A stretch of DNA of 64,000 nt from Eukaryota sp. GEM-RC1 (Eukaryota). The notes under the pieces were generated by a model, which ran no database searches, was not told the origin of the DNA, and was given only the letters and a program-made list of their open reading frames with translations. Within the stretch, counting starts at the first letter, position 1. Every line of letters begins with the position of its first letter. The position numbers and the translations under genes were made by a program. The DNA is taken from positions 1,736,001 through 1,800,000 of the forward strand of contig JAUFOQ010000001.1 of NCBI GenBank assembly GCA_040285855.1. Direction: 5' to 3'. Of the stretch, positions 1 to 64,000 are shown in pieces.

Positions 1-30
1 ACGAAATCTTATCTCTCACCCGTCAACTCT

Positions 31-2572
31 TTGCAGCAATGCAACTCTCCTATTCTCTTGAAGAACCCCGTTCCCAACCACCAGCTCCCAGTCGAACAAC
101 TAACCGACAACCCAGAACTCAACCTCGCTCTTCTAGACCCTCTCATTCCTCTTCTCACCTCACTTGCGCTTATTGTAAGGAGCCGGGACATGTCAACCGA
201 CTGTCCAGATCCCAGCTGCCGAGCAAGTCGATTTCACCGTCCCCTATCCACTCCTCAATACCCTGCCCAACAAAATCGAAGCCCTAGACCCCCTGCTCGA
301 GGAAATCCCCCACGAAGCGTTCCAAGAGACCAGCCACGAAGCCAGCCTGTCCATCGCAGAAATCAAAGAGAACCCACCATTAACCGCCGACCTAATACCC
401 GTTCTTCTAACCAACGCCAGGTCAACGCCGTGGACACCACCTTACCTGCTCCAGAATTTGTGGATCACATCCCCCTTTGTCTACCTGTAGACCTTGGGAT
501 TGATGATTCACAGAGCAATTCTGTCAATGCTATTTCAACTCACTTAACTTCAGACCCTTGTAAACTTTCCCACAAGAATGACTTTTTAAAAATTAATCTT
601 ACAATCAATGGAGTACCTACTATGGGTACCATTGATACTGCTGCTAAGACTTCCTGCATTACCCAGGATATTGCCTCCAATGCCAACATGGAAATTTCTG
701 AGAAACAAATTCCAATCTTCCTAGCCAATCAATCTAGAATTTACTCCCCCGGCCTTGCTTGTGGCTACCTTACCTTCCTCTTCGAAGGCCCAGCCAAGAA
801 AGTTCACTTGAAGTCTACCCTGCCGATCTTACCCGGCAAAGACCAATTACTTATCGGGTGTGACATTCTGACCAAACTAGGTCTTATGGATGCCAACGGT
901 GTCTACATTAAACTTGACGAAGAACATCGAAGATTTATCTCCGCTGAATCTGCCTTTGACCAATTTATGACTGCTCCCCCCTGAAGTGTTTGCTACTAAC
1001 CCTAGTTCTCCTATTAACTCATTTAAGCAACATCTTGAACAGAAGAAAACCAGAATAGAACTTCCTCCCGTCGAGAAAGAAGCTTTAATTGACCTCCTTG
1101 CTGAATTCAGTGATGTGTTCAGTGATTTGCCTCATCCAGATGGCATCGACTGTGAACCGATGAGAATCCCTTTGCAGACGAATCAAAAATTGTAAGCCCC
1201 CCCCAGGAACCTTAGCCCCGAAAAATTAGAAATTGCGAACAAAGAATTCGACGACCTTCTCAAAAAGAATTTTGCTGTACCTAACGAGACCAAATGGTCC
1301 TCACCCATCTGTTTAGTGACCTACGCTGACAAAGCTCCTAGATTAACCGGTGATTTTAGTGGCAAGAATGGGATCAACGACCTCTCACTTACTCTGGAAG
1401 CCGATTTGCCTAAAATCGCTGACATCCTGCGCGTCCTGTCTAAGGCAAAATATATTGCTACTCTCGACTTACCTAAAGCCTTCTGGCAAGTCAAACTTCA
1501 CCCAGATGACGTGAAAAAAGCTTCACTTTCCATACCTGGACGTTCAATTTCTTTTACTCGAGCTGCTTTTGGACTGAAAAATGTCCCAGCTTTCTTTCAA
1601 AATTTAATGGTCTCATTTTTCGCCGATGAAGACATTTTTATTTACATCGATGACATAATCGTATGTTCGGAAGACTTTTCAGATCTACTCGCTAAACTCA
1701 GGAAAATTCTATCGAAAGCTCGTGACAAACGAGTTAGATTTGGCCTTCGCAAATGCGATTTTATTACTTTCAAGAGTAAAATCGAGATCGTAGGATGCAT
1801 CTTCCAAAATTTTCAACGCTCGATCAGTCCAGATCGAATTAAAGCTATCTGTTCACTCCCGCGACCAAAGACTTTATCAGAGGTTCGAAGTTTCGTTGGA
1901 TCGATTAACTTCATTAGAGACTGGATCCCCAACCTGGCCTCTGTACTAGAACCAATTTCAAATCTGCTAAGGAAAACAAACAAGATCATCTGGACCGCTG
2001 AAACCGAAACGTGTTTCAAAGAAATTTTAAAACTAATTTCCAGTAACATACCCTTGAACCTGCCTGACGCCAAAGCTACTATTTTGATTTCCACTGACGC
2101 CTCCGAAGTAGGCCTTTCCGGGATTATTTGGGAACAAATCGAAGACTGTGCTGATGGAACCCCTCTTATTGAAAGGAAAACCAGACCTCTCTGTTTTTAC
2201 AGCAAGAAGTTTACGGACAGCCAGAAGAACTGGCCCACCATCCAGAAAGAATTATACGCCATCCTGGCCACCCTAACTCTGTCCCCATTATCTTCCTTCC
2301 TCTTAACCAAAAGATTTACGTTATTTTGTGACCACAAAAACTTATCTTATTTAATTTCAGCTCCCGAAAAGAACAGGATCGTCACCCGATGGATCCCCAT
2401 CCTTGCTAACTTTGAATTCGAACTTGTCCATACCGCTGGTGAAGACAACCACTTCGCTGACTTGCTTTCCCGATGGTTCCCCGAACCTTCTTCTGTTAAC
2501 CCTAGCATTTTGATGTGCTCGTCTACGGTGCCGGATGCAGTCGAGGGGGAGACACTTGATGGCAGAGGATAG
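31..2572 (+). CDS. Gag C-terminus / protease / RT / RNase H, split by several small indels
   Basis: ORFs 39-287, 31-984, 986-1195 and 1316-2572 join through small indels, mostly in homopolymers (~980, ~1175-1205). Confidence 0.9.
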
Positions 2573-5198
2573 TAGGTTATCCTCTCCACAGACTTCTCAT
2601 CAACCCTCGGGACCTGTTTCAAACAGGGCTTCTGGAGCAACGTTTCAAACGTCGACGCAGATGATGCGACAATTTGACAAAGATTGTGAAGGACTCAGCC
2701 GAGAGGAACAAGTCCAGCTTTTCTGGGATAGAAAAGACGCCTTTATGGAAGCTCACGAACAAGAACAGGAGTACATAAACGCCCTAGAAGCCGAAATCAA
2801 AGAATCCACCGACGAACAACTCCGCTTGCAACTGGAAAGAGATGCCGCTGTTGCTCTAATTGAAGACGATATAGAAGACCAGGAATTCCATGATCATCTG
2901 AGAGGAAATGGCCTCTTCATTGACGAGGATGGACACATGTGTCAATTGCCATCCATTGACTCAGATGATGAATTCCGCATCTATATGACCGATATACCGG
3001 ATCATATAGATCTCAGCAGCTCTGATGAGTCTCCCATTCTAATCGTAGATGATGAGCATTCCCCAATGCTCGAAGACCTGCCATCGATCGAAGCGATCGG
3101 TGCTAGCTATCGCCTCTTTCCCCACCTGATCAGAGACACCTCTGAATTCCTTAGGATCTCGAATTCCGCCGCAACCTCGGCCGTGATCTCAGTCTCGTCG
3201 GAAGACGAAGACGACCTATACGAACAGTTCCTTGGAGAATCGCCCAAGGACACCCGTCTATTTGACAATCTAGGCAACGAACTGCCTGGCCCCTGGAACC
3301 CTCCAACCAACATTAACATTAACCCTAGACCCAACATTCCGCTAGCCCCTCCAAACTTTGACCATGTAGGTATCCATGATAACGCTGGATACTACAGCCC
3401 CTGTACCGACTCCGCTCTCACCGACGAAGGCCCCTTCGACATCATGATTGCTACCCTTGATGACTCCCGAGCTATTGAACCAGAAATTGACGAGGACAAC
3501 CTGTTCGCCGAACGGTTAACTATTGACCCCTTGTCCCACAACCTCCTTAGTAGCTCCGACAGTGATCTCCCCGAAGAGACCTCTTGGACACAGATCCCCG
3601 ACCCCAGCCATGTGTTCAACGATTGGTTGAAACTACTATCCCAAGAACAGGAACAGGCAACTAAAGACAATGACATCACCATGACCACCGACACAGAGCT
3701 TATCTCCATGACCGCTAATGATAAAGATTATGTGCTCACTTGGAACCATAGGAAGAAGAAGTTCGTAATCCCTGACTCCCTGAAACGACACTTGCTTCTA
3801 ACTATACACGGATCCACCAGAGCAGGACACCCGTCCAAGAAAGACTCCGTCTCTGCTTTAATGAGAAGTGACTACTGGTGGCCTAACTACCTTTACGATA
3901 TGAAGTCTCACGTAAAGAATTGTATTCCATGCCAAAAGACCGCTCCTGCCCCGGAATTGAAGCTTCCCTCTTCTGGAAATCTTTGGTCAGACCGCCCTTT
4001 CCAATGCTTACATGCCGACGTGATTGGACCGCTTTCCCCAGATTCAGAAGATTACAAATACATCTTAGTATTCGTGTGCTTTTTTTCCAGGTTCTCTGTT
4101 CTTGTACCCCTGAAAGTACTCAACGCCCAAGAAGTAGCGTACTCCATTCTATGGAATGTAGTTGGAAACTATGGGATCCCTTCACAAATCCTGAGTGACA
4201 ATGGCCCTGAGTTCGCTAATGCCGTCAACAAAAGCTTATGTTTATTTCTAAACATCGAGATAAAATTTTCAACCCCCTACTTCCATCAATCAAATGGTCT
4301 AGTAGAAAGAAGACACCGCGAAGTACTGCAAACCCTCCGTCGACTACTAATTGATCTCCAAGCCCACTCAAACTGGAGTACATACATTCCCATCACCCAA
4401 CTGATCCTGAACACCAGAACCAGTTCAATTACTAATTTCACTCCCTTCGAGCTTATCTTTGGTTCGAAAACTGATCCTAGACAACTCCCTCTCCAAGTAA
4501 TCCAGAACTGTACACTGGATGATCACTTACCGCAGAACTCATATGTTGACGCCTTGAAACAGAAAACTTCAACCATCTTAAACAAGTGGAAAGAGGCAGA
4601 AAACTCCTCCAATCTCAAGAAAAGATCGCTCTCATCCAGGAACTCCGCCACTAACAAAAAACTCATAGATGACATCAATCAAGGAGACTTCGTCTTGAAG
4701 CTCAGCGAACATCCCTCGAAGACCCATGGGAAGTGGACTGGTCCATACCTAGTCGAGGACGTCTCCTATCATCCCTCTAATTGCCTCGTCCGCAATCTTA
4801 TCACAGGTATCTCAGTAAGATGCTCCCTCTACCATGTCAAGAAGTGCCACACGAACCACTCCGAAAACGTGCTTCAAGCCTATGCTGCTACTGATTCAGA
4901 AGAAGTTGTGATTGACAAGATCATTGATCACGACTTGACCTCCCCGCAAGACCCTAAGTACCTAGTCCGCTGGCTGGATGGTACTACCACCTGGGAAGGC
5001 CGCTCAGTAGAGAACACCGCCGCCTACTATGCTTACCGCAGGAAGTACATTGATGAACCTCCTCAAGCTAGAGGTCCCGCAACTGCCCGTGCTAACTCTA
5101 AACTAGACGCTGCTTGGAAAGCTCAACACCACAAGTCCGCCCCTGTTGTAGCTCGCAATCAGCATCGTATGAAAACAAGAAATCGTACATCTCACTAG
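2535..5198 (+). CDS. Acidic spacer + integrase (HHCC, DDE) + C-terminal chromodomain
   Basis: H..GH..C..C zinc motif, LHADVIGP, ILSDNGPEF, SNGLVERRH; chromo-like VIDKIIDH..KYLVRWLDGTTTWE. Confidence 0.93.
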   Translation: MQSRGRHLMAEDSRLSSPQTSHQPSGPVSNRASGATFQTSTQMMRQFDKDCEGLSREEQVQLFWDRKDAFMEAHEQEQEYINALEAEIKESTDEQLRLQLERDAAVALIEDDIEDQEFHDHLRGNGLFIDEDGHMCQLPSIDSDDEFRIYMTDIPDHIDLSSSDESPILIVDDEHSPMLEDLPSIEAIGASYRLFPHLIRDTSEFLRISNSAATSAVISVSSEDEDDLYEQFLGESPKDTRLFDNLGNELPGPWNPPTNININPRPNIPLAPPNFDHVGIHDNAGYYSPCTDSALTDEGPFDIMIATLDDSRAIEPEIDEDNLFAERLTIDPLSHNLLSSSDSDLPEETSWTQIPDPSHVFNDWLKLLSQEQEQATKDNDITMTTDTELISMTANDKDYVLTWNHRKKKFVIPDSLKRHLLLTIHGSTRAGHPSKKDSVSALMRSDYWWPNYLYDMKSHVKNCIPCQKTAPAPELKLPSSGNLWSDRPFQCLHADVIGPLSPDSEDYKYILVFVCFFSRFSVLVPLKVLNAQEVAYSILWNVVGNYGIPSQILSDNGPEFANAVNKSLCLFLNIEIKFSTPYFHQSNGLVERRHREVLQTLRRLLIDLQAHSNWSTYIPITQLILNTRTSSITNFTPFELIFGSKTDPRQLPLQVIQNCTLDDHLPQNSYVDALKQKTSTILNKWKEAENSSNLKKRSLSSRNSATNKKLIDDINQGDFVLKLSEHPSKTHGKWTGPYLVEDVSYHPSNCLVRNLITGISVRCSLYHVKKCHTNHSENVLQAYAATDSEEVVIDKIIDHDLTSPQDPKYLVRWLDGTTTWEGRSVENTAAYYAYRRKYIDEPPQARGPATARANSKLDAAWKAQHHKSAPVVARNQHRMKTRNRTSH

Positions 5199-9583: not shown

Positions 9584-10530
9584 CACCAATCGGTTTAAAT
9601 AGTCTGGACCAGAATAATTCTTATAATGGTTTTTAGACCCCAAAAATAAGAATTAGTCTGGACCAGACTAATTGTTGAGAAAAATAAAATAGTCTGGATC
9701 CTTTTTTTGTTTACATCATCATATTTGTTGTTCTAAAAACTTAGTTGACACTACTAAGAACTCAAAAATGATTTTGTATGAAAGCTTTTTCTAATGTCTG
9801 GACATAAATAAACACCTTCTCTTAATTCAAACTGCAACTGAGACTTCGCAGCATCTTGAATGATAAACGACCAAAAATCGATGTTATATCTAGTGAACTA
9901 TATGTTGTCTTCGTCAATTTTTTCGTTTGATTATCTAATACATTCTCGTGCTACTTTCCTAAACAGCGTTTCTCAAAGTGTATCTACTCTTTAGACACCA
10001 AAGATTGCTACTAATTTATGGCCCGTGTCTAGTGTATCATTAGAACAACAACGAACATCAGGAACAGAGTTTGTCGCAAATATAGAGCACTAACAACGTT
10101 AGTCTTGAGTAGTCTTCCATTCTATGTACCTTTTTAAATTCCCTAAACAGGACCTTTATGTGATTAATTATGACTGATACATCACGAGTTAGAATCACCT
10201 CAGAAATTTAATGTCTGCTGAAGCATCATCAAGGCATTTAATATGCTGAGTACTTCCAGAATCTGGTGTTTCTGCATTGTTAGTGTTAATTATGGACTGT
10301 TTCATCAAAAGTGTGGACACTGTCTGATGTTCAATAGCAACTGAATACCATGTGAGTTGTTACTATATCACTCCTAACTTCAGTAACTACAAGTAAACAG
10401 GTCAAATCGAACGTTTTTACAGAATTATGACAAAAAACAGTCAACTCCAGACTAATTTCTATAAAAGTGAGATTCTAAAAAGTTCCAAAATATGAATTAG
10501 TCTGGACCAGACTAATTATACCGATTGGTG
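9584..10530. mobile_element. Non-autonomous pogo-like element
   Basis: TIRs CACCAATCGGT.../...ACCGATTGGTG followed by TA; subterminal TAGTCTGGACCAGACTA repeats as in the pogo element at 51659. Confidence 0.8.
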
Positions 10531-20843: not shown

Positions 20844-22373
20844 TTAAAGACTTTCAAGAATCTTCACCAAGAAATCCATAGTCTTATTAACTGAATTAAT
20901 CGAACACTCCTCCTTAGAAGTATGTGGATAAGCAATATAAGGCCCAATAGAGATAGCACTCATAGCCTTATCAGGACGTTTAGCCATAAGAATAGAAGCT
21001 TCAAGTCCAGCATGAACAGAGTACACCTTTGCATACTCATTGAACAGAATTTGATGACACTCTTGAGCAATCTGTAAGACACGGGAGTCCAGGTCTGGGT
21101 TCCATCCTACAAATCTACAGGCAGGTCCCAACAACTCAGCACCAGTAAGCTTAGCCAAAGACTTCATCTCCAAATGGAACAAATCCATTTCACTTTCAGC
21201 AGATGATCTTGAGAACAACTCAACAACAAACTTATCTTCCTTAATGTTAGCCAATGCACAATTGACTGAGGTCTGGACTGCTCCTACAATACCAGGATTC
21301 ATACGGATAACTCCATGGGGACAGACCATCAAAGTGTCAATGATCAACTCTGACAATTCCTTGCTCATTACCTTTTCAGGAATCTCAGCAGCCTCACATA
21401 AGAGAAGAGGAGGCTTGGTCTCAATGATCTTGTATTCTTCATAGAATTCTGCAAAAGATTCAGCAAGAGCAGTCTTCCAATCCTCAACATTCTCCACCAT
21501 CACAACAACTTCGGCTGAGCTTGGGATAACATTACGAGCTCTACCAGCAGTGAAAGAGGCAATGTTGAACTCACCTTCTACTTTGTTCATGGCGTGAGAG
21601 ATGATACGAGCCATGACCTTAATAGCGTTTCCTCGATTTTCACCAATTTGGATACCACTGTGACCACTTCGAAGGTCCTTGACAATGATCTTCATTGGGC
21701 TAATTTCAGGAACGTCTTCACTGAAGGTAATGGGAAGGTGGAGCTCGTGTTCTTGACCTCCGGATGATCCAACACAGATAGCGTGATCTTCTTCACTGTC
21801 TAAAGTCAATAAGGTGATTCGGGCATACCGAGATTAATGATAACAGTGGCTTCAAAAGGAACCTCGCACTCATCAGCTCCAACCATGGTAGTTTCCTCAT
21901 CGATCTGTGATAAGGTAATGAGAGAAAGAGCAAACGGTAAAGAGAGCTTCAATGGGACCATGTACGAGAGTATCTGCCTCCAGAACAGCCAGGGCCATAG
22001 CGACACCCATGCCGTTGTCAGCACCAAGAGAAGTGTTTTGAGCTAAGAGAAGATCGCCTTCGATGTTGAGACTGATGGGATCGGACTCGAAATTGATGGC
22101 TACATTCTCATCACAAACACAGACCATATCAAGATGACCTTGGAGAAGAACAACAGGAGAGTCCTCTTTTCCTTGAGTGGCAGGCTTTTGAATAAGAACA
22201 TTACCAACACGATCTCTGTGAGTTTTGAGCCCCCAGGTTTTAGCCATTTCTTCGATGCGGTCTCCAAGATGTGTACAGTTACCGGAACCGTGAGGAATGG
22301 AGCAGATCCAAAGGAAGTGTTCGAATGCACGTTTCTGAATGGGAGTGTAGGCGAAGTCTGTTAAGTTGGACAT
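20844..22373 (-). CDS. pepD: Aminoacyl-histidine dipeptidase (PepD-like, M20), 3 exons
   Basis: QGHLDMV, LGADNG, DEE, NLDSEE, HAGLE, SIGP..HT motifs; introns 21905-21935 and 21800-21828 restore the frame. Confidence 0.93.
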
Positions 22374-26861: not shown

Positions 26862-27806
26862 ATGAACATCGATCTTCCACTCATCATCTCTGAAGAAGTC
26901 CAATCTGCTCTTGAATCTGGACTTCCCATTGTTGCTCTTGAATCTACTATCATAACACATGGCAGTATGTCTTTAGCTGCGCTCATATAAGTGCCATATC
27001 CTCAAAATCTTGAAACTGCCCGTGACGTGGAAGCTATTGTTAGAGAACATGGATCTATACCAGCCACAATTGCCATCATTAACGGTATCATCCATGCAGG
27101 TCTTGTTGATGTTCAACTTGAGTCTCTTGCTAAAGGAGGAGATAATGTTGTTAAGGCCTCAAGACGTGATTTAGGTTACGTCCTGATGAAGAAACTATCT
27201 GCCGGAACCACCGTCAGTGCCACAATGTTGATCTGTAAACTTGCCAACATTCCCATCTTCGCAACTGGTGGTCTAGGTGGGGTATCTCGTGGCTATGACC
27301 AGATTCTAGATATATCCACTGATCTGACTGAATTCGCAAAGAGTAACATTATGGTTGTAAGTGCTGGTTGTAAGAGTATCATGGATATCCCTAATACATT
27401 GGAATACCTAGAAACCGAAGGAATCCCTGTAGTTGGATATCAAACGCTTGACTGCCCTTCGTTCTATTCCCAACGCTCTGGTATCAAGCTCCCATGTTCA
27501 GTTGATTCTGCTCTGGAGGCTGCAGTGCTGTACAAATACACTCAGGCTATCTCTCCTTCTGGAGTTTTGGTGGCTAATCCTATTCCAAAGGAGTTTGAGA
27601 TTCCTAATGAAGAGATTGAGCCAGTTATAAGTGAAGCTTTGGATGATGCTAGTAGTAATGATGTTAGTGGGAAGGATGTTACACCGTATTTATTGAAAGC
27701 TATTGTGGAGAAAACTGGAGGTAAAAGTTTAGTTACGAATATTCATTTAATTAAGAATAATGCAAAGTTGGCCTCTCAAATTGCTGTAGAACTTAGTAAG
27801 TTGTAG
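26862..27806 (+). CDS. psuG: Pseudouridine-5'-phosphate glycosidase (stand-alone)
   Basis: VALESTIITHGMPYPQN (after 27-nt intron 26965-26991), TTVSATM, FATGGLGGV, GKDVTPYLL. Confidence 0.95.
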
Positions 27807-48512: not shown

Positions 48513-49420
48513 TGTTGGTCGTTGTACACTAATATTGAACATTCTAGTCAGGAGAACCTTTATAAGGAGAAGTACCTCTATGATGTAAGGGAGAAGTTAG
48601 AATCGTATTTTGAAATTACTCAGTACTGTAAATCTCGTCGTCTTTTCTTCTGGTTGGATAAAGCATATAATTATAACAGTACTATTAAAACAAACTAGCG
48701 GTGTGGCTTCAAGTTCTCTCTCGTTGGCGTTGCTGGGCCTTCTATGCGGGGTCTAATTTGGTGTTATGTAAGTATAGTGTACACACCGAGAGATTTATAT
48801 CAAATGTATCCTACTAATGATATCTGTGACAGCAGTTCTAAAAACGGAATCAACAGTTAGCTCTTTGGTTGGCGGGACCGTCGGTCTTGGGATGCTCGTC
48901 TATCTGTTTCACGTGGTAAGTATAGTAGACGGTACTATTCTCAATGGAACGATCTTCCCAGGTGGTGGTACCGTCCAACAAGCGTACTAGGTACTTGGGG
49001 TCTTGTGGATCAGTGAAGTCGTGGTCAATAAGCTTGTCAATAACTACTTCTTCGGAGTCAGTAGCAGCGTAGGCTTGCAAAACATTGTCTGCGTGGTTAG
49101 TAATACATGTGATCTTATTACTGAGAATACAGTTCGAAGGATGAAAAGAGACAGACTCGACCAAATAAATGCCAGTCCATTTACCATGGGTTTTAGAAGG
49201 GTGTTCGCATAGCTTAAGGACAAAGTCACCAGATTCGTCAATAAGCTTGTTGTTGGTGGTGTTGTTTGTGGGAGAGAGACGTTTTCTTGAGATTGGAGGT
49301 CTGTTCCGCCTCTTTCCATTTGTTGAGAATGATAGAAGTCTTTTGCGTTAGTACATAAGAGTTAGGTTGGATGTGATTGTCATGGGCACATTCTTGTATA
49401 ACTTTCAAACTTTCGCAGGG
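48513..49420 (-). mobile_element. Decayed 3' end of a related Gypsy copy (integrase tail, chromodomain, PPT, LTR)
   Basis: NVLQAYAATDSEEVVIDKLIDH..DPKYLVR nearly identical to the first element; LTR homology 48513-48640. Confidence 0.9.
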
Positions 49421-50720: not shown

Positions 50721-51658
50721 AATAATCTCAAAAACCTACTAAAATTGACAAAGAATAGCGTTTTTCTGAAACTGAAAATGTCAGCATTGTAGAGTGTCAG
50801 GAACAGATGCAAATTCATGTTCCTAAAAAAAACAACTTGGACAAGTAGTAATGAACTGAAAACTAAAAAATCAAAAAACTAACGAACAACTCTGTATTGT
50901 TTGTATATTATTTCTATTACTTAATACAATTTCTTTTCTTTATATACAGTTGTTTTGTTTGTATTCTTTTGCAGGGCTACTCCGAGTCTCTGACACGGTC
51001 TCACTTTTAACTTCACAATAAAGAATATTAGCCTAAAGACACCAGTTTCTCAATATCAAACAACTAAATTGAACAACTGTACTTACGACAAAAGATTAAC
51101 AATTTGATGACGATTTTAAAATTGAAAATTGAAAACAATAATTCAGAAGATAGTTTATTTTTACGTGCTGCTTAATCAAGCTTTGGACAAAAAGACTGTG
51201 TTTGATAAGCAATCAGCATTACCACGTGTTCTTCTTGTTCTACATGAGAAAATAGAAATTCAAGTATCCTTTACATCCTTCACATTCTTGTTTCACGTCT
51301 GACTGCTATAACTAACGACAATCAGCATTTGTCAATAAAAATACTGCATTGTATACACAGATCTATTTACAAGGAAGTACTACATTTCGTCTAATCGCTC
51401 CACTGATTTCAATCGAGTGTTAGAATAAATACTTTTCAAATTGACGTATCTGCGCGTAAGTTTTGAAGCACCCAGTAGGATTTCCATGGTGTTCGTAGTA
51501 ACTACATTCTTCAAATCAGAGAGAAATTTTGAAAAGCAAATGCATTCTCAGCATTCTTGTAATGTGCCACCAACATATGATTATACAACATATTTTCCTC
51601 GCCAAACCAACATTGTTTCCAATGCTCCTAGTTCCGGGGAAGAAATGCCCTGAAACTA

Positions 51659-53741
51659 CAGTATTCAGTGTATTTAGTCTGGATAAAGAATTAGTCTGGA
51701 CTTAAATTAGTCTGGACCATACTAATTTATATTTTGATCTCTTTCAAAAGATGGATTTTTTACAACAATTAGTCTGGATAGCACAATTAATTGTTTAACA
51801 TACTACACAACAAAGATATTAGACATATAAGTACTACACTCTTCAGTAGCTGGTTGTGATTTCATTCAATTTCTTCACCCAATGTATGGTTCTCCAATTT
51901 TACAATCTTTCGCAAATGCAAGAGAGTCTCAAGCACCTCGTGTCTTTCTTGTACAAGACTCATCAGACGATGACCTTCCTGAAATCCCTATCGACCAGCA
52001 ACTCTCTCCCGAAAATGAACCTGAAAGACGTCGCCAGCGCCGCTGTCAAAACGTAGTTACACTTGCTGATAGAAAGAAGGTACTGGACTGGATGGAAACT
52101 TTTGTTCAGGAACATGATACTGAAACAGGACTGTTTGCGTCCACAGCACGCAAGTTTTCGCAATACTTCGGCGCTACAAGTTACAAAGCTAATGTAGAAA
52201 AGGCATCCAACTGGTGGAAGACCAGAGACACTTTCTGTCTTAAGTATTCAGAACTGACCAAAAGTGTTTCGTCACTGCAAAATGGTGTTAAAAGGACTAT
52301 CCGTCGAAAAAGTTTCAATGGTAGAGGGCGACAAAGGTCCGATTGGGTTGTGTGGCTCTACGATATCCTTATTGATGAATTTCGGCGTTTGACTCGAGCT
52401 GGACTAAATGTTTCGAACTCTTTATTATTGGAAATGGCTCAACACCTACTCTACCATTCTGATCATCCTATTTTCATTGCAACTTACGTTTGTCCAAGAG
52501 ATAAGAAGCAGCAACCAATCGTTGAAAAGATCACAACATCATGGATACAAGCATTTACAGTTTACTTCAATTTAGTGATTCGAAAGCAGACTGGTAAATT
52601 GAGTATCTCTCCTAGTAAAACAGCAGAAATCGAGCGTGAAGTTGCCTTTCACTTGGGGAAACTCAAACGCTTATTTGACAGTGGGGACTTAAACGAATAC
52701 CTGGTGGAAAATTTTGATGAAACACATTTCATTTTGAATGTCGACTCTGGGTATACTTTAGCTCAAAGAGGTCAGAAAGAAATTAAGTATGCAGATGTTG
52801 TATCTGGTACGGTGGGATTTACTATGGTCGTCAGGTTAACAGGAGGAGCTCAAGGTAAGTTGACACCAATCTTTATTATTTTTCAGAATGCGAGTTCGTC
52901 GTATCCAATTCGTGATGTTGATGATGATATGCCTTTAGTTGGATACCGTTCATCAAAGAAGGGATGGATGACAAGAAAGTTGCTATCACAGTACTTTTCG
53001 AATCGTAAGGTATACAAGCGAGATCGTTATAACCGGCAGAAAATCATTTTTTGTGACAACGCTCCATGTCATATGAAGAACACTGAAGTAGATGAAGCAC
53101 TTAACTCTTTGAAAGCGAAACTCGTATACCTTCCAAAAAATGCAACTCATCTAGTCCAACCTGCTGACAGTTTTGTCATTCAAAAACTAAAAACAGTTTG
53201 GCTCAGGAAATGGAACAAGAAAAAGAAAGACATGATAGAAAGTGGACTATGGGCATCAAGTGGAAAGTTACAGAATCCAGGAAAGCACTACTCTTTGGAA
53301 TTGGCAGAAGAGACTTTGAGAGAAGTAAACGACCAAAGAGATAAAAACGGATTAACGTATGCTCGTAAAGCAATGATTCTTTGTGGATTGTCGTTAAACA
53401 CAAACGGATTATGGGAAACGAGACAGTTGAAACCAGAGCTGCAAGCAATCATAGCTAGGTATCCAGAAGAGTTTGACGGAAGGTTGCCAGACACTGTTTC
53501 TGACAGTGATTGGGTTTAGGGTAGATATAGTTGTATGTTTCATAGTGTATCTGATACTACAAGTTGTAAAAAGTTGATCCAGATTAATTCTTTTTCACTT
53601 AATATAGTCTGGTCCAGATTAATTCTTTTTTATATTTAATAGTCTGGACTTAAATTAGTCTGGACCAGACTAATTAAAGTTTTGAGCTATAAATATCACA
53701 CTAGAAATTAGTCTGGTTCAGACTAAATACACTGAATACTG
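51659..53741 (+). mobile_element. Intact pogo/Tigger-like DNA transposon
   Basis: Perfect 23-bp TIRs CAGTATTCAGTGTATTTAGTCTG; TA on both sides; uninterrupted transposase. Confidence 0.96.
51882..53519 (+). CDS. pogo-family DDD transposase
   Basis: NFDETHF, KGWMT, FCDNAPCH, YLPKNATHLVQPAD motifs. Confidence 0.95.
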   Translation: MYGSPILQSFANARESQAPRVFLVQDSSDDDLPEIPIDQQLSPENEPERRRQRRCQNVVTLADRKKVLDWMETFVQEHDTETGLFASTARKFSQYFGATSYKANVEKASNWWKTRDTFCLKYSELTKSVSSLQNGVKRTIRRKSFNGRGRQRSDWVVWLYDILIDEFRRLTRAGLNVSNSLLLEMAQHLLYHSDHPIFIATYVCPRDKKQQPIVEKITTSWIQAFTVYFNLVIRKQTGKLSISPSKTAEIEREVAFHLGKLKRLFDSGDLNEYLVENFDETHFILNVDSGYTLAQRGQKEIKYADVVSGTVGFTMVVRLTGGAQGKLTPIFIIFQNASSSYPIRDVDDDMPLVGYRSSKKGWMTRKLLSQYFSNRKVYKRDRYNRQKIIFCDNAPCHMKNTEVDEALNSLKAKLVYLPKNATHLVQPADSFVIQKLKTVWLRKWNKKKKDMIESGLWASSGKLQNPGKHYSLELAEETLREVNDQRDKNGLTYARKAMILCGLSLNTNGLWETRQLKPELQAIIARYPEEFDGRLPDTVSDSDWV

Positions 53742-55567
53742 TAACTTTTGCTCCAAAGATACACCAATAGAGTTCGACTTAAAACTCCCGAAATTCTTAA
53801 ACAACCCTTATCCTGGATCGGATACTTATACCGTTTCCAACCTCCTCCCTATTACTTCCACCACCTTAAACTCTAGCAAAATCTCTTCATACAAGCTCTC
53901 TAGCGACATCGTCTCTGTTCCTGAGGAAGTAACCTCCCCGTTGAGGCGAAAAAGGACGTTAGCTACAGCTACGGACAACCTCACGCTTTGAACTCAGTTC
54001 TTAGCAATGGCGCGAACGATCGAAGCATGAGAACCTGGATGCGGAGACTATGTTCAGAACTTCTTCCCCTCCGCACTCTAACTTGATGAAACTTATGACA
54101 AAAGATCACTTTCTTCAACTCGAGATCTTGATGAAAACACTCTCAAGGTCATCGCTTGCCGAAGTTGAAAACAGATTAGATGGACCGCCCTTGTAGAATT
54201 TTCGAAGAGTCGCCGTCTGATGAAGAACATGTCTTGCCTATTGTTGTACCTCCTGTTGCCGCACCTGTTGGAGCTGTCTCCGGGTTGCTGAATGCTTGCC
54301 TCGAAGCTAGAGATCTCTTTTCTCCTCCTAGATCTCCTCCCATTGTTCATCGTTGATATTAAATTGATTGCACAATTGGCAAGATCATCTTATCTTCATC
54401 TTATTATAAATACAAAAATAAACATTGTTAATCAGTGTTGAGAATTCTGTGTGGGGAAATTCCTTCCCCACTGAATAGAACTACAGAGGAATAATAACAC
54501 TAGGAAAAATATATAAGATGACAGAAACACGTTCATCCGAATACAACAGCCAACAGGGTCTTCAAAGCTCGGCGGCTACGACTTGAAAACGAAATGTATA
54601 GGGACTGGTAACAACAAAGATGGATTAACACTAGTAGTTATGGCAAGCACGAAGTTCTATTAGAAGGCATTTACCTCGAAAGGGATGCTTGCCGGTAAGA
54701 GAACTAGCTACTGCATCCATGTTGGAAATCACAGTCATACTACCACTACCTCAGATTAGTTAATAAAGTCATCATACTGAAAGAGACATCTTGATACAGA
54801 TGTTGAAGCTGTGAAAATATTGAACAAATGCAAGTTACTAGCCTTCTTAAGGATATAGGTCAAAATTCAAGGAGATACCTCACGAATCTTGGTGACTCAA
54901 CAGGATTTCTGTTGTGACTGAGCAACACGTCATGTTTCAGGTATATATGTATGATGTATTCAGTACTGGGAAACAAGTACATGTACATGTTCTTTTATAT
55001 AAAACAACTTGAAGCTTCTTAGATTTAGTCCTTTTGTGTTTCTCTTATTCAGGACATTGCTTCCACTTCTATTCTGCTTGTACTATGCACCACTTTCTTT
55101 CACAATCTTGATGTTGCTTTGAGAAGAACCCTCCCCATGTACTCTTTCAACAAACACCATCTTAGACCCACTCAAACAATACACCACGTAGAGAAGTTTC
55201 TTCGACTCAATTATGTCTTCCCTGGTGAATTCAACTCATCCCATGGTTCTCTAGTAAGTGATAATGTCAAATACCGAAGGTTGTCAGTATTCTAAGAAAT
55301 TTACCGATTCAATTCTATGGACCTTCTTCAACGAGAAGCAGAATGGTGAAAAGTTGAACCAGTTCTCCAAGATAAAAGAGGGTTGAAGTTCTTGTTGAAG
55401 CAAATTTCTTTCTCCACATCATAATACTGGTTTCAGTACAATTTATACACAAATATATATAATGAAGTAAAACATGGATACTGTGATTTTCACATGAGAT
55501 CCTTAATTCACATTTTCACTCTCAATTTTGGACCCAATTTTTTCCTTCTTTCGTTTAGTGTTTCCAC

Positions 55568-57240: not shown

Positions 57241-58039
57241 CGGAGTTTTGTCAAGTCAGTTATGGCAACATCATCCAGACGCCGAACTCCTCCTGTTCAC
57301 TGTGAACAAGTAAAAGATCAGATTTATAGGGCATATCAGCTGGACAAAAATGAAAGACTAGAAATTGGGAATCAGGACAAAAATGGAGTGAAAATTCTTG
57401 ATAAGCAGTGAAATCAAGACAAAGGAACAATTAGAAACCCATGCTGAATTAATTACTGAAATTTTCGGAATATTAAACAATAGAAGTCCAATTGGTGCTG
57501 AATTGGAAAATGTTATTAAGCACCCGAAATAAAATCCACAGTATGTTCCTAAATTTAATCTCTGCATCGTTTTAAAAAATTGAAAACCATACAATGTCAT
57601 CATTTGAGAAGTTCAATCGCCAACAATGTGAGTGATCAGAAAATGAATCAAAATATGTCGAACACAGACAAGCCATGGTACACATGAAAAATATCTGGCC
57701 AAACAAAAATAGAACATGGAAATCAAGCAAGTCGAAACTCAACCACAAACCTGCTACTGTACTGTACCATCTTCCTTGAAAGACCTCTTCAATCAAATCC
57801 TTTTCCCTTTTTGGTCATGTTGCATCATTGAGTAACATCGTGAACGCAACACAATCCTCACAATTTGAACAAGTCTGCTGAACCATGAGTTGTCCTTTTG
57901 TTGGATGCTTCAGTCTTGATGGTTGTCTTCTACTACTTTGTATCACTTCCGTTGATGATCTTGCATTTCTTCCTCCATTCATCTTACTTTCACTCTAACA
58001 CAATGCTCAACACTCTATCATCGCCGAAACTAAAATCAA

Positions 58040-58530
58040 ATCTGGGGACATCGTTCTCCCCTCTTTTCTCAGTGTATATACTTGAACCGTTTGTCTATCA
58101 TATATCCTCAAATCACCAATGATAGTTACTTCATTCTTCGTGACTTCGATGTCGTTCCTCCCGCTGCCTGAACTAACATCGAACTAACGCTAAACCAAGA
58201 TGGAGAAGTTGGTGACGGAACAACATCAGTCATGATCCTCGCTTCTGAACTCCTTGCCTACGCTAAACCTCTCTTCAACAGTCACGCCACCATCATCGTT
58301 GAAGACTACAACAAGCTTGTCTCCATTGCTTTCGCCGTACTTACTTACATGAAACAACAAGAAGGAGGTTTCAAACTTTGTCAAGTCTACTCTTGGTAGT
58401 ATGTTTGTCTTGGTCTCGAACTCATGTATATTCCTCCAGTTGACGTTGTTTCCACCCTAACTCAGACTATTTATGATTAAACTAAGGAAATTGACTTTAA
58501 GGAGTTTGTTAGGGAAAGTATTAAGTGAAG
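58040..58530 (+). pseudogene. CCT/TCP-1 chaperonin (gamma-like) pseudogene fragment
   Basis: TND..ILRD, QDGEVGDGTTSVMILASELL and KEIDFKEFVR, with in-frame stops. Confidence 0.75.
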
Positions 58531-58785
58531 ATTACCTCAACTTTGATATCATCCACCTTCAAATGAAGCGAATACTTGAGAATCATCGAGTTGTTTATTT
58601 ATGCTACTATTTGTATATTTGTTAAATTATCGTTCAGTTCTGACATCCAATCACGATAGTGAAAGCAACTTTCTTTATTGATTTAGCTTCCTTTAGTATG
58701 TAGCGAGGACACTTGTTGCGTTATTTAAGGTAAGTGTATTGAGTATTCACCAAATCTTTTTTTAAATCTAAATATGATTAGCTGT

Positions 58786-59307
58786 TCAAACCGGGATTCT
58801 ATCATGGTTTAACATGAAGGTTAGTTTTTTTCTACTTTTTATTAATAATAATATTTCACAATATATGATTTCTATAGGTAAATCCAAATAAATATCCAAA
58901 CTATAAGTGGTCCTATCAAAATTTTTATAAAAATCATTTACTTTTACAATATATGATAAACGATTATCGAATCTAATATTAACTTTATAATCACCTGCCA
59001 TAGTGTTAACATAAAATTCATGAGTATAAAGATAGGAATATAATGCACAATATTTTGGATAATCCCATGGAGTTTTCCAAAATAAACCATGTAAAAATTT
59101 TATCTTTAAATCAATTGGAATGATGGGATTATCTATAGTTTCTTTTATTATACAACAATACAATAATCCATTATCATCAATTGGTTGATCATGATATAAT
59201 GAGTTATATGCAGCAAAAATCGTAATTCCAGAAACATTTACATTTCTAATCTTTATATATTTTGGTAATCCTGTAATTAAATAAAATAAATATTCTGGAT
59301 ACGACAT
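58786..59307 (-). CDS. Hypothetical protein (virus-like region)
   Basis: Open frame from MSYPEY; shared upstream motif. Confidence 0.65.
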   Translation of the reverse strand: MSYPEYLFYLITGLPKYIKIRNVNVSGITIFAAYNSLYHDQPIDDNGLLYCCIIKETIDNPIIPIDLKIKFLHGLFWKTPWDYPKYCALYSYLYTHEFYVNTMAGDYKVNIRFDNRLSYIVKVNDFYKNFDRTTYSLDIYLDLPIEIIYCEILLLIKSRKKLTFMLNHDRIPV

Positions 59308-59324
59308 TACTAAAAAAATAAAAA

Positions 59325-59969
59325 TCATTTTTTATAAAATCTATTAAAAACACAATGTCCATTATAATTATTTTCACCACGTGGAGTATAACCTAAACTT
59401 TTCAACTTCTTTATATAGGTCCACATATTTCCTAAATCAGATTTCATAAACACGACATCTCCATCATGTTCACCAATTCCAACAACAAATCCACGAATAT
59501 TCTTCAATGTAAAATGTTTAAACTTTGTGCCGTATATTAAATATTCATGGAAATCATGCTCATCTCGATTATTAGTTCCATCCTCAAGAATAGGCAAATC
59601 AGAAATTACTGTGAATTTGATTTCATTTGCAAAATCGTATTTGGAAAATCCTTGAGCATACATTTGCCAAGGTTCTGTTGACTTGAATTCAACTTCCTGA
59701 TAAAACTGTTTGTAATCATTATCCCATACTTTTTTGGTTTTTGTTTTGAATGTTAGATCAATGTGGTTTTGATATCTCTTTAGAAATGATTCTTTGAATT
59801 TTTCCTTAACGAATTCTTTGAATTGTTCCTTATCATATTCTTCATATTTCTTCTTTAGTCCTTCTCCGAATATACACTCAAGAGTACCCTCATCCAAATC
59901 TTTCTCAATTTCTTCAATTTGGATATCAATGGTATCTTCAATTTGTTTATCCAGAGATTCGTTTGTCAT
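59325..59969 (-). CDS. Hypothetical protein (virus-like region)
   Basis: Likely start MTNESLDK, which avoids overlap with the next ORF. Confidence 0.7.
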   Translation of the reverse strand: MTNESLDKQIEDTIDIQIEEIEKDLDEGTLECIFGEGLKKKYEEYDKEQFKEFVKEKFKESFLKRYQNHIDLTFKTKTKKVWDNDYKQFYQEVEFKSTEPWQMYAQGFSKYDFANEIKFTVISDLPILEDGTNNRDEHDFHEYLIYGTKFKHFTLKNIRGFVVGIGEHDGDVVFMKSDLGNMWTYIKKLKSLGYTPRGENNYNGHCVFNRFYKK

Positions 59970-60000
59970 TTTACATAAAAAAATAATCACTTTTTTTTTG

Positions 60001-60552
60001 TTAATATTCGTCATCACTTTCAAATTGAATAGTAAATTTAGTTCCATCCTTTTTATTGGATTGAAGTAATCGATCATCCATTTCAGGAACATGTCGTGCA
60101 ACGATATCAGTATCTCTAATCATGATGTATCCATCAGTATATTCAATATATCTACCATCATCATTTAAACCTCCCCAAGTAATAAAATCTCTTCCTAACT
60201 CAGTTTTTCCCGTTCGATTAAAGTAATGTCCAGTTTCAAGATTTTGGAAATAATCAAAACCATCATTATAATGATAAATCCATATAAATCTATTACTACC
60301 AGTATCTTCTTTTACTAATGGCATGAATCTAGGATCACCATATGTAGTGGTAACATGTGTTGGTGATTGTTTTATTGCATATCCGGATTTTGTAATAAAT
60401 TTAAACTTTTTACCATCATCAGCTTCAGTGAATTTATGATAATATGTTTGTGGACCAGGAGGTTTATTATTTCGTAATAATAAAAATATTAATAATCCTC
60501 CTATTAATAAAGCTCCTATTATTCCTGCTATTATTTTTTGTTTCTTATTCAT
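60001..60552 (-). CDS. N-terminally membrane-anchored protein with beta-rich domain
   Basis: IIAGIIGALLIGGLLIFLLL TM segment; WIYHYND..YFQNLETGHYF. Confidence 0.75.
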   Translation of the reverse strand: MNKKQKIIAGIIGALLIGGLLIFLLLRNNKPPGPQTYYHKFTEADDGKKFKFITKSGYAIKQSPTHVTTTYGDPRFMPLVKEDTGSNRFIWIYHYNDGFDYFQNLETGHYFNRTGKTELGRDFITWGGLNDDGRYIEYTDGYIMIRDTDIVARHVPEMDDRLLQSNKKDGTKFTIQFESDDEY

Positions 60553-60603
60553 TTTATTATATTGTTTTTAGTTGATTTTTAAAAAAAAATATTTTTTTGA
60601 AAT

Positions 60604-60792
60604 TTAATTAAGTACCCGATCAAGTACAGGTAGATGATGTTCCAAACTACGCCTGGCCCATATGTGAGTTGGATGATCTTTTGTGAATTTAGCACACACT
60701 TTTTCTAATTCATTAATAAAGTCAATATAGATTCTATCCACTCCTTCTACACCATAATTATCATCAGATTCGTATTCATGTTCAACAACCAT
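60604..60792 (-). CDS. Small hypothetical protein (virus-like region)
   Basis: 62-aa ORF with the shared upstream motif. Confidence 0.5.
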   Translation of the reverse strand: MVVEHEYESDDNYGVEGVDRIYIDFINELEKVCAKFTKDHPTHIWARRSLEHHLPVLDRVLN

Positions 60793-62080
60793 TTTTTATT
60801 ATTAATAATCATTTTTTTCATTATTGAATTTTCATTCGAGATTTTCTGTAAGAGCTCATGAATATTGAATGATTCTATTCCTAATATCAGAATCACTATC
60901 GTCAAATTTCTAAAAAATAAAAATTTAATATTCATTCTTTTCAAGATTTCTAAAACTTCACTATAAGAATACTTTCTACATAATCCTACTAATTTTGCAT
61001 GACTTAATTCATTCAAATTGAAATCAATTACAACATTATCTAATTCATACATTAATTTCAAAATATTTTCTACATCATCCTTGGTAGCATAATCCATTTT
61101 CAAATCAATATCAATTCTACCTGGTCTTCTTAATGCTGGGTCAATCTTCTCTGGATGATTAGTTGTCATTATCAAGATTCTTCCGTCACCTTCTATTAAT
61201 CCATCAATTGCATTTAACAATCCGCTCATATCAATCTTCTTTGGTCTTTTATCATCTTCTTTAGCCTCAATCTTTCTTTCCATACAATCAACATCTTCGA
61301 ATACAATAAAGCTATCTAACTGAAATCTCGCTTTGACATGTGATTCGAGAGTATCAAAATTCAAAAGTGTTACATTTTTCATTGTTAATTTTGCCAATGC
61401 TTTAATGAAAGAGGTCTTTCCCGTTCCAGGAGGTCCATGAAGTAATATTCCAAGAGTATGAGGAATTCCTCTTTTGGCATACCATTCTTTGTTATTAAGA
61501 AAGAAATTAATTTGTTTTAAAACAGATTCTTTTCCTTTGAAAAAACGATTATTAAAATTGGTGTTTGTTGTTAATATAGGATCTTCAAAATCACTATAAA
61601 AATCTCTCAACCTCACCTCATTTAAACTTTGTTCATATAAACTATATTCGTTCTGTATGTCTTTAATCCATAATTCAATATCATATACATTTTTCGTATA
61701 TGAAGATATTGTAATGACATTTTTATTGTAACACCATCATCATTTGCTTCCTCACTATAAGTAGCAGACATATAAATGTCATCAGCAATTTTGATCATTT
61801 TTAAATCATTAAAATATAGACAATGTCTATGTATCATATTTACGTTTATATCTGGGTTGTATTTTTTCAAATAATATTTCAAAGATCGACTAACAACATC
61901 CTTATTAATATAAGTTACATTATTCAATGTTTTTCTTTTCATTAATTTTGGAATCAATTCTCGTTTGGAATAAATGAAATTAACAATCATTATCCCCAAC
62001 ATTATACAAATCTGGAAATTGTCTTGTTTATCGAATAATGATTTAAAGGCCATTATTTTGTAAAACCATTCATTGTCCAT
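60747..62080 (-). CDS. BCS1-like AAA+ ATPase with N-terminal TM segment (3' end uncertain)
   Basis: WYAKRGIP..ILLHGPPGTGKTS, VFEDVD, SGLLNAIDG, MTTNHPEKIDPALRRPGRID; N-terminal ORF joins through an indel near 61722. Confidence 0.88.
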
Positions 62081-62103
62081 TGTAAAAAAATAAATATCTT
62101 TTA

Positions 62104-62758
62104 TTAACATAAAAAGGATTTAAGTTTTCTCACATTTATAGAATGATATGAAGATATATCATTACCTTGACATTCTAATCGTTTCAAACTTTTTAATCCA
62201 GATATATCAGTTAGTAAATTATGAAAACAATACAATTCTTCTAATTTATTCAAACCAGATATTTCCTTTAATTGATTATTACCACAATACATAATTACAA
62301 GATTTGGATAATCATGAATGGTTTCCATCAAGTTATGAGAACAATTCAGATACAATAATCCTTCAATAAATGGTAAAGATTTAAACTTATTATACATGAC
62401 GTTCAAACCCTTGAGTTTTTTTAAGTGGAGGAAGCGTTTCCATACCATTACCTATACATTCAAAATATTCAAGATTTGGATAATCACGAATTGTTTTTAC
62501 ATTGTTGTGATTTATGTCCAATAATATTAATGATTCAATATATGGCACTTCAGTAATATCACAATATTCAAGACTCAATGCAATTAAATTTGGCATTTCT
62601 ATATTTTCTAAAAACATTACGTCTGAATAATCTTCGACAATCAGTCTGTTAATTGTATCCTTTTCTTTTATGAATTCATCATAGTTATTTGGATTCAAAT
62701 GGAATGTTTTATCTCTATTTAAAAAGACACCATCACAATCATCTCCATTAAGAAACAT
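62104..62758 (-). CDS. Short (20-aa) LRR protein
   Basis: LxxLxCxxNxLxxI repeats; two ORFs join at the A-run near 62418. Confidence 0.8.
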
Positions 62759-62796
62759 TAAAGGATCTCAAGGTATCATATTTGTAAAAATTTATT

Positions 62797-64000
62797 TTAA
62801 AAATCCATTGTCCAAATCTTAATTGTTTCATCATCATATCCTCGTTCTTTTAATTCCCTGGTAAATGTATTTTTATTAAATTCATCGCGTAATTTTAACC
62901 TATCAATTATATTCATAATTTGTTCATTTGATGATATTTCCAATTTTATATTTTCATCAAAACCAACCAATACATTTACCAATCTAGTTACCCTACCAAC
63001 AAAACATTTACCTTCACCATCTTTTATTTCTTCGTTTAATCTAATCATTAATTCCTTTTGAACCTCTTCATCAAAATGATTAATTCTATTAATTACTAAT
63101 TTATAAATATCAGATAGTGTTAGCTTTAAATCACTAAAAGAGTATCATCAGTAAATGGTGATTTGATATTGTTTGTATTGTCTGAATACTTTTCTAATAA
63201 ATATTCCAGTGATTTAATTAATGATTTTTGGATATTGGTATCATGGACATTTTGAGTATCTGTAAATATATTTTCTCTGGGGTTTCTTCTCCGTCTTCTT
63301 CTAAATCTATCGACCACTAATTCAGGAATATCATTATTCTCACAACGTATTGACATTAATTCGTCCAATGGAGGTAAAGTAGTTAATTGGTTATAATGAC
63401 AATGTAATGATTGAAGTATTGGATAATTTGGCAAGAATGTTAAAAGATTATTATTACAACATAAATGAAGCAATGTGAATAAAAATGGCAATTCAGTTAA
63501 TTCATTATATTCACAATATAATTCTCTGAGATTATTCATTGGTGGAATCATGATTAACTTATTATGATCACATCGTAACATTGTAAGTTCATTTAATTGT
63601 GGTAAAAATAACAATTTATTATGATCACATGTTAATCTTAAAAGATATGGAGATATCTCTATTTCTTCAATTTCATTATATTCACAATTAATTCTAGTAA
63701 CCTTTGGTAAGGAGGGAATGATTTTTATTTTATTATGATTGCATTGTAGATATCGTAGATTCTTAAATTTGGGAAGATATGTTAATTTGTTGTACTGACA
63801 AAATAAATCAATAAGATTTGGTAAATTGGAAATAAATCTTATTTCATTATGTGAGCATTTTAAAATTTTCAACATTGGTAATGAAGGAATATACCGTATC
63901 TTATTATGTCGACAATGTAAATGTTCAAGGGTCTCATATTTAGGTATGGTAGTTAATAAATTGCGATTACAAAATATTTTTTTAATATTTTTTAGATATG
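62797..64000 (-). CDS. Short-LRR protein with C-terminal QNVHD...CFVGRVTRLVN domain (5' end outside window)
   Basis: 20-aa LRRs, then DTQNVHD; indel near 63140 joins ORF 62797-63048 (GKCFVGRVTRLVNVLVGF). Confidence 0.82.

Follow-up and report, generated by a model that had tools for sequence, protein, structure and literature searches.

An AT-rich gene block in a skoliomonad genome is probably the left edge of an inserted nucleocytovirus genome stretch

Algae, euglenids, fungi and other eukaryotes are known to carry endogenous giant viruses. The described systems closest to the locus reported here include the eight eroded giant endogenous viral elements (GEVEs) of the order Asfuvirales in Euglena gracilis (PMC12455990, accessible part), and the egovirus-related genes and polintons of Parabasalia, which are likewise evidence of large DNA viruses in metamonads (10.1101/2024.03.23.586382 and 10.1101/2025.04.19.649669, accessible parts). 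We describe a 64,000-nucleotide stretch of the genome of Eukaryota sp. GEM-RC1 (the window; contig JAUFOQ010000001.1, positions 1,736,001 to 1,800,000, forward strand), the last 5.25 kb of which form an AT-rich block of seven genes. With a probability of roughly 0.78, this block is the left edge of a stretch of Nucleocytoviricota genome inserted in a skoliomonad chromosome; we infer its integration, size and intactness from the features set out below.

The block resembles the Euglena elements (as the accessible part of that report describes them) in its nucleocytovirus-type genes, its distinct composition, its occurrence in several copies and its signs of erosion, but differs in that the host is an anaerobic free-living metamonad, that neither transposons nor introns have invaded the 5 kb, and that marker genes are not in the 5 kb seen. 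The parabasalid cases, as far as the accessible text goes, are scattered genes and polintons in gut parabasalids, whereas here a contiguous virus-style block lies in a free-living skoliomonad. In Anaeramoeba there are virus-related inteins, whose host proteins are said to be without obvious viral ancestry (PMC10710043, accessible part). The kind of element is known and the host group new, evidence for giant viruses in metamonads having so far consisted of the gut parabasalid cases and the inteins. For skoliomonads and barthelonids, no published virus or viral insert came up in a search that left outside most subscription literature and the supplement of a survey of 7,103 assemblies (10.1101/2025.04.19.649669); in the skoliomonad genome paper (PMC11316075) the main text is free of words that begin with 'vir' and the supplementary files searched are free of virus terms, and 'virus' and 'viral' are absent from the accessible part of the genus paper (PMC11603281).

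The block is set off by a sharp step in composition. The GC content is 0.366 over positions 6,001-58,750 and 0.265 over 58,751-64,000, no 5,250-nt window to the left of the step being below 0.330; the best GC change point is 58,720, and Markov models of order 1-3 place the boundary at 58,720-58,743 (58,712-58,836 within 2 nats). From these two measures the left boundary, which is the host-insert junction as assembled and has no strand, is drawn at 58,720-58,745. In dinucleotide signature the block lies 170 units from the host part, host windows of equal size staying at 75 or less, and the five signatures closest to the block among the loci compared are all from viral contigs (distances of 76-91). 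GC at third codon positions (GC3) is 19% in the block (1,619 codons) and 35% in the host (3,882 codons from 11 host coding stretches). The block is 96% coding, with genes g1-g7 all on the minus strand, g1 lying at the junction and g7 being cut by the window end; the spacers are 17, 31, 51, 23 and 38 nt, and the open frame of g5 overlaps g4 by 46 nt. No blastn match links the block to the first 53.5 kb of the window, where the transposons lie. A sequence-only reading of the window had reported a sharp transition near 58.75 kb into AT-rich DNA, with seven co-oriented genes, mostly very short spacers, no transposable elements and no evident tiny introns, and had proposed GC and codon profiles as a check; the description holds in each of these respects, and both profiles set the block apart from the host. 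As in GEVEs, the block is distinct from its host in composition, gene-dense and intron-poor; the other mark of such elements, clustered genes nearest to nucleocytovirus genes, is represented by g5 and g7, g6 being a generic leucine-rich-repeat (LRR) protein gene and g1-g4 orphans.

The host is a skoliomonad metamonad, one of a group of anaerobic soda-lake flagellates within Metamonada (PMC11603281, accessible part). The window encodes a pseudouridine-5'-phosphate glycosidase (26,862-27,806, plus strand) that is 68% and 61% identical to the orthologues of the skoliomonads TZLM1-RC and TZLM3-RCL, respectively, and the single intron of this gene, 27 nt long, illustrates the tiny GT-AG introns of the host. 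Seven of the ten host open reading frames looked up, together with the insert gene g2, are placed on an NCBI contig of 3,977,043 bp, on which recorded genes numbered 268 and 1282 both sit. At the published mean density of 14,268 proteins in 33.5 Mb about 1,700 genes are expected on that contig, and the window is therefore probably internal rather than at a contig end, although gene density may be uneven.

The first of the two identifiable genes is g5 (60,747-62,080, minus strand), which codes for a BCS1-like AAA+ ATPase of giant-virus type (PF00004, E 6.5e-18). It has a single AAA domain with Walker A and B motifs and an RPGRID motif, its best match among solved structures is mitochondrial BCS1, and its N-terminal piece matches positions 90-163 of the family profile (E 9e-5); its relatives end near 60,925, beyond which the open frame of g5 continues into g4. 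Such ATPases are abundant in viral contigs, where 567 of the first 600 pattern matches are relatives. Three trees, which held no eukaryotic BCS1 of known name, agree on the side to which g5 belongs: in a tree of 148 rows it falls on the giant-virus side of a branch separating it from phage-type rows (support 99), in a tree of 62 rows (three identical duplicates dropped) it groups with giant-virus bins (100/94), and in a tree of 47 rows, thinned for speed and with five named phages added, it stands apart from those phages (99/96). The 62- and 47-row trees leave its place within the giant-virus clade unsettled.

A second ATPase of this type is present in the sister species TZLM1-RC. The second-best of 7,315 ATPase matches to g5 is protein P0004 of that species, which is 37% identical, is encoded on a contig of 4.04 Mb, lacks the N-terminal third, and joins g5 at 83/83 in the 47-row tree. 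P0004 may mark a second viral insert, and since g5 and P0004 are only 37% identical, against 68% for the host orthologue pair, separate insertions of related viruses would fit better than one inherited insert.

The second identifiable gene is g7 (62,797-64,000, minus strand, its start lying beyond the window), coding for an LRR protein with a C-terminal domain in which QNVHD and CFVGRVTRLVN are both present; the sequence-only reading was right to place LRR proteins with QNVHD and CFxGRxxRLVN motifs among giant-virus types. The C-terminal domain is found in four of the best 150 of 7,818 matches, and when an alignment of five was used as the query, 110 of the 191 pattern matches in viral contigs were relatives. 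Of the 68 loci kept, 39 are named giant-virus bins; the closest (L030, 52% identity) adjoins a MutS gene. The nucleocytovirus capsid family PF04451 scores above its cut-off in all six g7-domain bins searched, and the supplement of PMC13524828, consulted for six bins, gives an order for five, namely Imitervirales for four and Pimascovirales for one, with none of the five in Asfuvirales; the sixth is absent from it. The giant-virus bins in which the families of g5 and g7 were found are 0.35-1.06 Mb in size. None of 50,697 phage records matches the domain.

Across 45 aligned g7-type domains, E, C, G, R, N and L residues are invariant. The domain belongs to no consistent Pfam family (25 families are listed for the 45), and no PDB sequence matches it under E 0.2. 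We considered a NEL-type (IpaH/SspH) E3 ubiquitin ligase but saw no sign of it in sequence, with no NEL family among the 25 and no PDB match; the NCBIfam matches of g7 to NEL-type ligases span the LRRs only. From the architecture, one might guess at an enzymatic role for the conserved cysteine, such as ubiquitin ligation. Giant viruses, we note, have the QNVHD...CFxGRxxRLVN domain (loci L030-L097) as a large family in multiple copies, which has an invariant cysteine and lacks a Pfam model. The neighboring g6 (62,104-62,758, minus strand) codes for a short LRR protein, with PF12799 in both of its pieces and a repeat register that carries on across its frameshift.

The remaining four genes, all on the minus strand, are orphans. 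They are g1 (58,786-59,307; 173 aa), the C-terminus of which may be loosely F-box-like; g2 (59,325-59,969; 214 aa); g3 (60,001-60,552; 183 aa), with an N-terminal hydrophobic segment that likely spans a membrane; and g4 (60,604-60,792; 62 aa). No Pfam, NCBIfam or PHROG family was found for g1, g3 or g4, and g1-g4 have no relatives among the 185 loci compared; in viral contigs, none of seven pattern matches to g1 is a relative and the search with g2 gave none, while g3 has two weak metagenome matches confined to its N-terminal low-complexity part and a single-sequence fold that is uninformative (pLDDT 33.6). An Atlas search with g2 and the g7 domain returned nothing usable.

An unusual feature of g2 is a diverged second copy on another contig of the same organism. 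Of 134 candidates two match, namely g2 itself on the 3,977,043-bp contig and protein P0002 on a contig of 2,618,283 bp; the second copy was compared through the P0002 protein sequence only. The two differ at eight residues over 170 in-frame codons, and P0002 reads a shifted frame over 43 codons, the shift starting at an A-run; the return to frame may be a gene-model artefact. In the shifted stretch, where third codon positions are exposed, seven of the eight readable changes are silent in the g2 frame, against a silent share of 21-35% expected if change were neutral (P 1e-4 to 3.5e-3). It follows that the gene was working as the copies diverged, and that they did not arise by neutral duplication of a dead insert. 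That two viral genotypes or paralogues entered the host genome is the simplest reading, the alternative being selection in the host; together with the ATPase of the sister species, the two copies point to repeated infection. The possibility that P0002 is a protein of another species, combined with a recent host-to-host transfer, was dropped, as the host gene in the window bears the same organism label.

These copies bear on two other accounts of the block. In the first, the block would be a small island of virus-derived genes retained and used by the host, in which selection on g2 then acted. This would agree with the divergence of the copies under selection and with g2 being the only insert sequence, among about seven looked up, that is recorded as a gene of the contig; but GC3 has not shifted toward the host value, introns are lacking, virus-type spacers are kept, the second g2 copy is frame-shifted over its 43 codons, and g5-g7 are broken, and we regard this account as improbable. 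In the second, a free giant virus in the culture would have been mis-joined to a host contig during assembly, as the sharp boundary, the restriction of all indels to homopolymers and the lack of in-frame stops would allow. The contig, however, is 3.98 Mb long, and with a diverged g2 copy on a second megabase-scale contig a chimera would call for two mis-joins, each with a viral genotype of its own; in the sister species, too, the virus-type ATPase is on a contig of megabase scale. A chimeric assembly has, in our view, a low probability.

The genes of the block are accompanied by promoter- and terminator-like signals. The motif AAAANTGA, which is the early-promoter consensus of poxviruses and mimiviruses (PMC5294985, accessible part), starts 25, 25 and 24 nt ahead of g1, g2 and g4, that is, at three of six starts. 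These copies, all on the minus strand, are AAAAATGA at 59,325-59,332 (g1), which overlaps the last codons and stop of g2, AAAAGTGA at 59,987-59,994 (g2), and AAAAATGA at 60,809-60,816 (g4); a fourth copy with one mismatch, AAATATGA, lies at 62,776-62,783 on the same strand, 25 nt before the g6 start. Among 841 genes from 111 AT-rich viral loci, AAAANTGA is found at -70 to -33 in 175 and at -32 to -18 in eight, and it is the fixed spacing in the block that stands out. Downstream of the genes there are five terminator-like runs of T6-T9 between 59,312 and 62,090 (minus strand), beginning at 62,090, 60,917, 60,589, 59,983 and 59,318. Five of the six runs of at least six T on the coding strand begin 7-18 nt past a gene end (thus at five of seven gene ends), and within 25 nt such runs follow four of six real stops in the block, none of 13 host genes, and 56 of the 841 genes from AT-rich viral loci. 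The sequence TTTATTTTTT, the core of a pacmanvirus 3' motif, occurs three times on the coding strand, each time past a gene end, and not at all on the other strand. Mimivirus-type long terminator hairpins are not claimed, since only short A/T stems (-5.5 to -8.6 kcal/mol, with no shuffle control) were seen.

Compared with the layouts of known nucleocytoviruses, these signals do not follow the Mimiviridae type, in which the early promoter AAAATTGA lies about 35-70 nt upstream and spacers are long; the motif here is at -24 or -25, and the spacers of 17-51 nt contrast with a mean of 157 nt in mimivirus (PMC5294985, accessible part). The same text gives a similar promoter, AAAATTGATTATTTGTTTT, for the iridovirus IIV-6. 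Early promoters close to the start, with short leaders, and poly(T) ends are described for African swine fever virus (PMC7163114, accessible part), and a 3' motif containing TTTATTTTTT for pacmanvirus (PMC11788076, accessible part), of which the block has the core but not the full 15-mer. The likeness to Asfuvirales is in signals only, over six or seven genes, and no block gene is tied to that order. By gene content, the nearest labelled relatives of g5 and g7 are in Imitervirales (Mimiviridae IM_16, IM_13 and IM_14) and in a Pimascovirales bin (PMC13524828, accessible part); these bins also resemble the block in AT content and dinucleotide signature, but identity is only 30-52% and the orphans are unmatched. 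Taken together, the patterns speak for transcription signals of viral type and against the usual mimivirus layout; they assign no order, because only six or seven genes are involved, the patterns were seen before they were counted, and short spacers force closeness. On the virus family the two lines diverge, the gene relatives being mostly Imitervirales at 30-52% identity and the signal spacing unlike that of mimiviruses.

A smaller integrating DNA virus or element, such as a polinton-like virus, virophage or transpoviron, might carry accessory genes and promoters of giant viruses, and would account for the very compact spacers, the multiple copies in one genome and the four orphans; transpovirons bear the same AAAATTGA promoter (PMC11788076, accessible part), and polintons are abundant in parabasalid metamonads (10.1101/2024.03.23.586382, accessible part). 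Both identifiable families, however, occur in giant-virus bins of several hundred kilobases or more, the copies differ far beyond what a recently transposed element would show, and within 5.25 kb of the left edge there is no integrase, protein-primed polymerase, terminal inverted repeat or capsid gene of its own. We consider such an element quite improbable as the source.

Three of the genes are interrupted by frameshifts, located near 61,720-61,740 in g5, 62,415 in g6 and 63,135 in g7, at or beside runs of A5, A7 and T4, respectively; a fourth is probable at the T6 run near 60,917, toward the end of g5. The sequence-only reading had described the lesions as mostly homopolymer indels, and all three are of this kind; its suggestion that the insert could be recent or intact is weaker, three of the seven genes being frameshifted. 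Runs of at least seven identical nucleotides number 11 in the block and one in 11.6 kb of host coding DNA. No in-frame stops were seen in ten coding pieces. Tiny introns were rejected as the source of the breaks, as none of six GT-AG candidates (18-45 nt, frames read by hand) restores the frame and the spacing of homologues leaves no room for them. The absence of stops, transposons and introns suggests that the insert is young. It is probably damaged, a remnant and not a working provirus. A nanopore-plus-Illumina assembly is described for the host organism (PMC11316075, accessible part), and if the window stems from it, errors at long A/T runs are possible. The breaks would be such read errors in a more far-reaching version of the insertion, in which the block opens a provirus that is large and for the most part intact. 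Its lineage, a nucleocytovirus one so far undescribed, would infect anaerobic soda-lake metamonads, combine mimivirus-like accessory genes with asfarvirus-like signals, and have entered skoliomonad chromosomes repeatedly. We think this version rather unlikely; were it true, the culture would offer, for the first time, a giant virus together with a free-living metamonad host whose mitochondrion has nearly vanished.

For a Nucleocytoviricota insertion, the following course of events can be proposed. A compact-genome nucleocytovirus infecting anaerobic phagotrophs would have been taken up by the host, and its DNA would have joined host chromosomes at least twice (as two viral genotypes, or as two paralogues of one virus), given that purifying selection still acted on the g2 copies as they diverged, before one of them broke. 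The genes would be written for the virus's own RNA polymerase, with an early promoter, AAAANTGA, some 25 nt ahead of the start and a T-run terminator in that same short spacer, and without the viral transcription machinery they would fall silent in the host and gather slippage indels. The genes seen would be viral accessory genes, comprising LRR substrate adaptors, of which g7 is possibly an enzyme such as a ubiquitin ligase by way of its conserved cysteine, and a BCS1-like unfoldase. The host, as a metamonad, would lack respiratory complex III, which this unfoldase would accordingly not serve. ATPases of the same class as g5 are encoded by clandestinovirus and medusavirus, where they are proposed to support mitochondrial activity (PMC8383183, accessible part); skoliomonad mitochondrion-related organelles, by contrast, are extremely reduced (PMC11316075, accessible part), and almost none of the mitochondrial pathways are reported to survive in TZLM1-RC. 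If viruses of hosts free of a respiratory chain carry a BCS1-like ATPase, that would argue against viral BCS1 serving mitochondrial respiration. The contiguous insert also ties a divergent nucleocytovirus lineage, in which no gene exceeds 52% identity to sampled sequences, to a free-living anaerobe in culture; marker genes, if present in the next windows, would place that lineage.

Several observations weigh against an inserted nucleocytovirus. Four of the seven genes are orphans, and capsid, PolB and packaging ATPase families, like VLTF3, RNA polymerase and other core genes, are absent from Pfam scans of ten open reading frame pieces in the 5.25 kb seen, in line, for the first three, with what the sequence-only reading had remarked of the window. 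All breaks are at homopolymers in AT-rich DNA, as long-read errors would also look. The signals were spotted as patterns before counting, and the sample comprises six or seven genes; the block has the promoter motif at no higher density (0.48 per kb) than host DNA (0.50), three of 13 host starts carry it (at -41 to -48), one of its three copies, that of g1, shares sequence with the g2 stop codon, the poxvirus terminator T5NT is not depleted in block coding DNA (5 occurrences against 4.8 expected), and nowhere does the block match the full pacmanvirus 15-mer exactly. As to g5, BCS1-like ATPases occur in 105 jumbo-phage records (best 122 bits), g5 scores 181 bits on phrog_7485 compared with 144-145 for two mimivirus-type relatives, forcing it together with the five named phages costs 13.5 log units and is not rejected by the AU test (p-AU 0.062), and g5 and P0004 are long branches without a settled position in two of the three trees. 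A scan of prokaryote genomes for the g7 domain gave one weak match among 201 pattern matches, which is a weak control because the same single-protein query also gave only one weak match in viral contigs.

The points concerning g5 and the prokaryote scan raise the question of bacterial or jumbo-phage DNA, from prey or a symbiont, inserted in or assembled with the host genome, an account also in keeping with the resemblance of the LRR repeats to bacterial LRR proteins. The sequence-only reading had BCS1-like ATPases as common in Nucleocytoviricota, and in so far as g5 groups with giant-virus bins this stands; as a diagnostic, however, g5 alone does not suffice, because jumbo phages carry such ATPases too. 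The separation of g5 from the five named phages at 99/96, and a g7 domain that many giant-virus bins carry and no record of the phage collection does, make a bacterial or phage source very improbable. An integrated large DNA virus of a poorly sampled protist, which the sequence-only reading had proposed, accords with the composition, packing, gene families and signals of the block and with its place on a 3.98-Mb eukaryote contig.

The host part of the window has several features of its own. Beside the junction lies a broken TCP-1/CCT chaperonin remnant (58,172-58,399, plus strand; PF00118, E 2.8e-10), with pieces from about 58,030 to 58,590 on the plus strand in three frames and with stops. 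The named matches to the pseudouridine-5'-phosphate glycosidase below three skoliomonad proteins are bacterial (51-56% identity), which suggests a lateral transfer common to skoliomonads, and an M20 peptidase (20,844-22,373, minus strand; PepD-like by reading, PF07687), split by small introns, is of possible bacterial origin. Expanded and shuffled host families (BTB, RING-kinase and RING-LRR) with a common C-terminal module occupy 5,400-47,800, and several of these genes are truncated or frameshifted, as near 44,390. In an LTR retrotransposon (1-5,198, plus strand), two overlapping frames code for reverse transcriptase, RNase H and integrase; a degraded inverted relative of it lies at about 48,850-49,350 (minus strand). 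A DDE_1 (pogo/Tc1-type) transposon at 51,657-53,743 has terminal repeats built on TAGTCTGGAC, with related ends at 9,589-10,517 and 42,480, and its protein falls in a 90% cluster with two further copies in the same organism, one of them identical over 419 aa.

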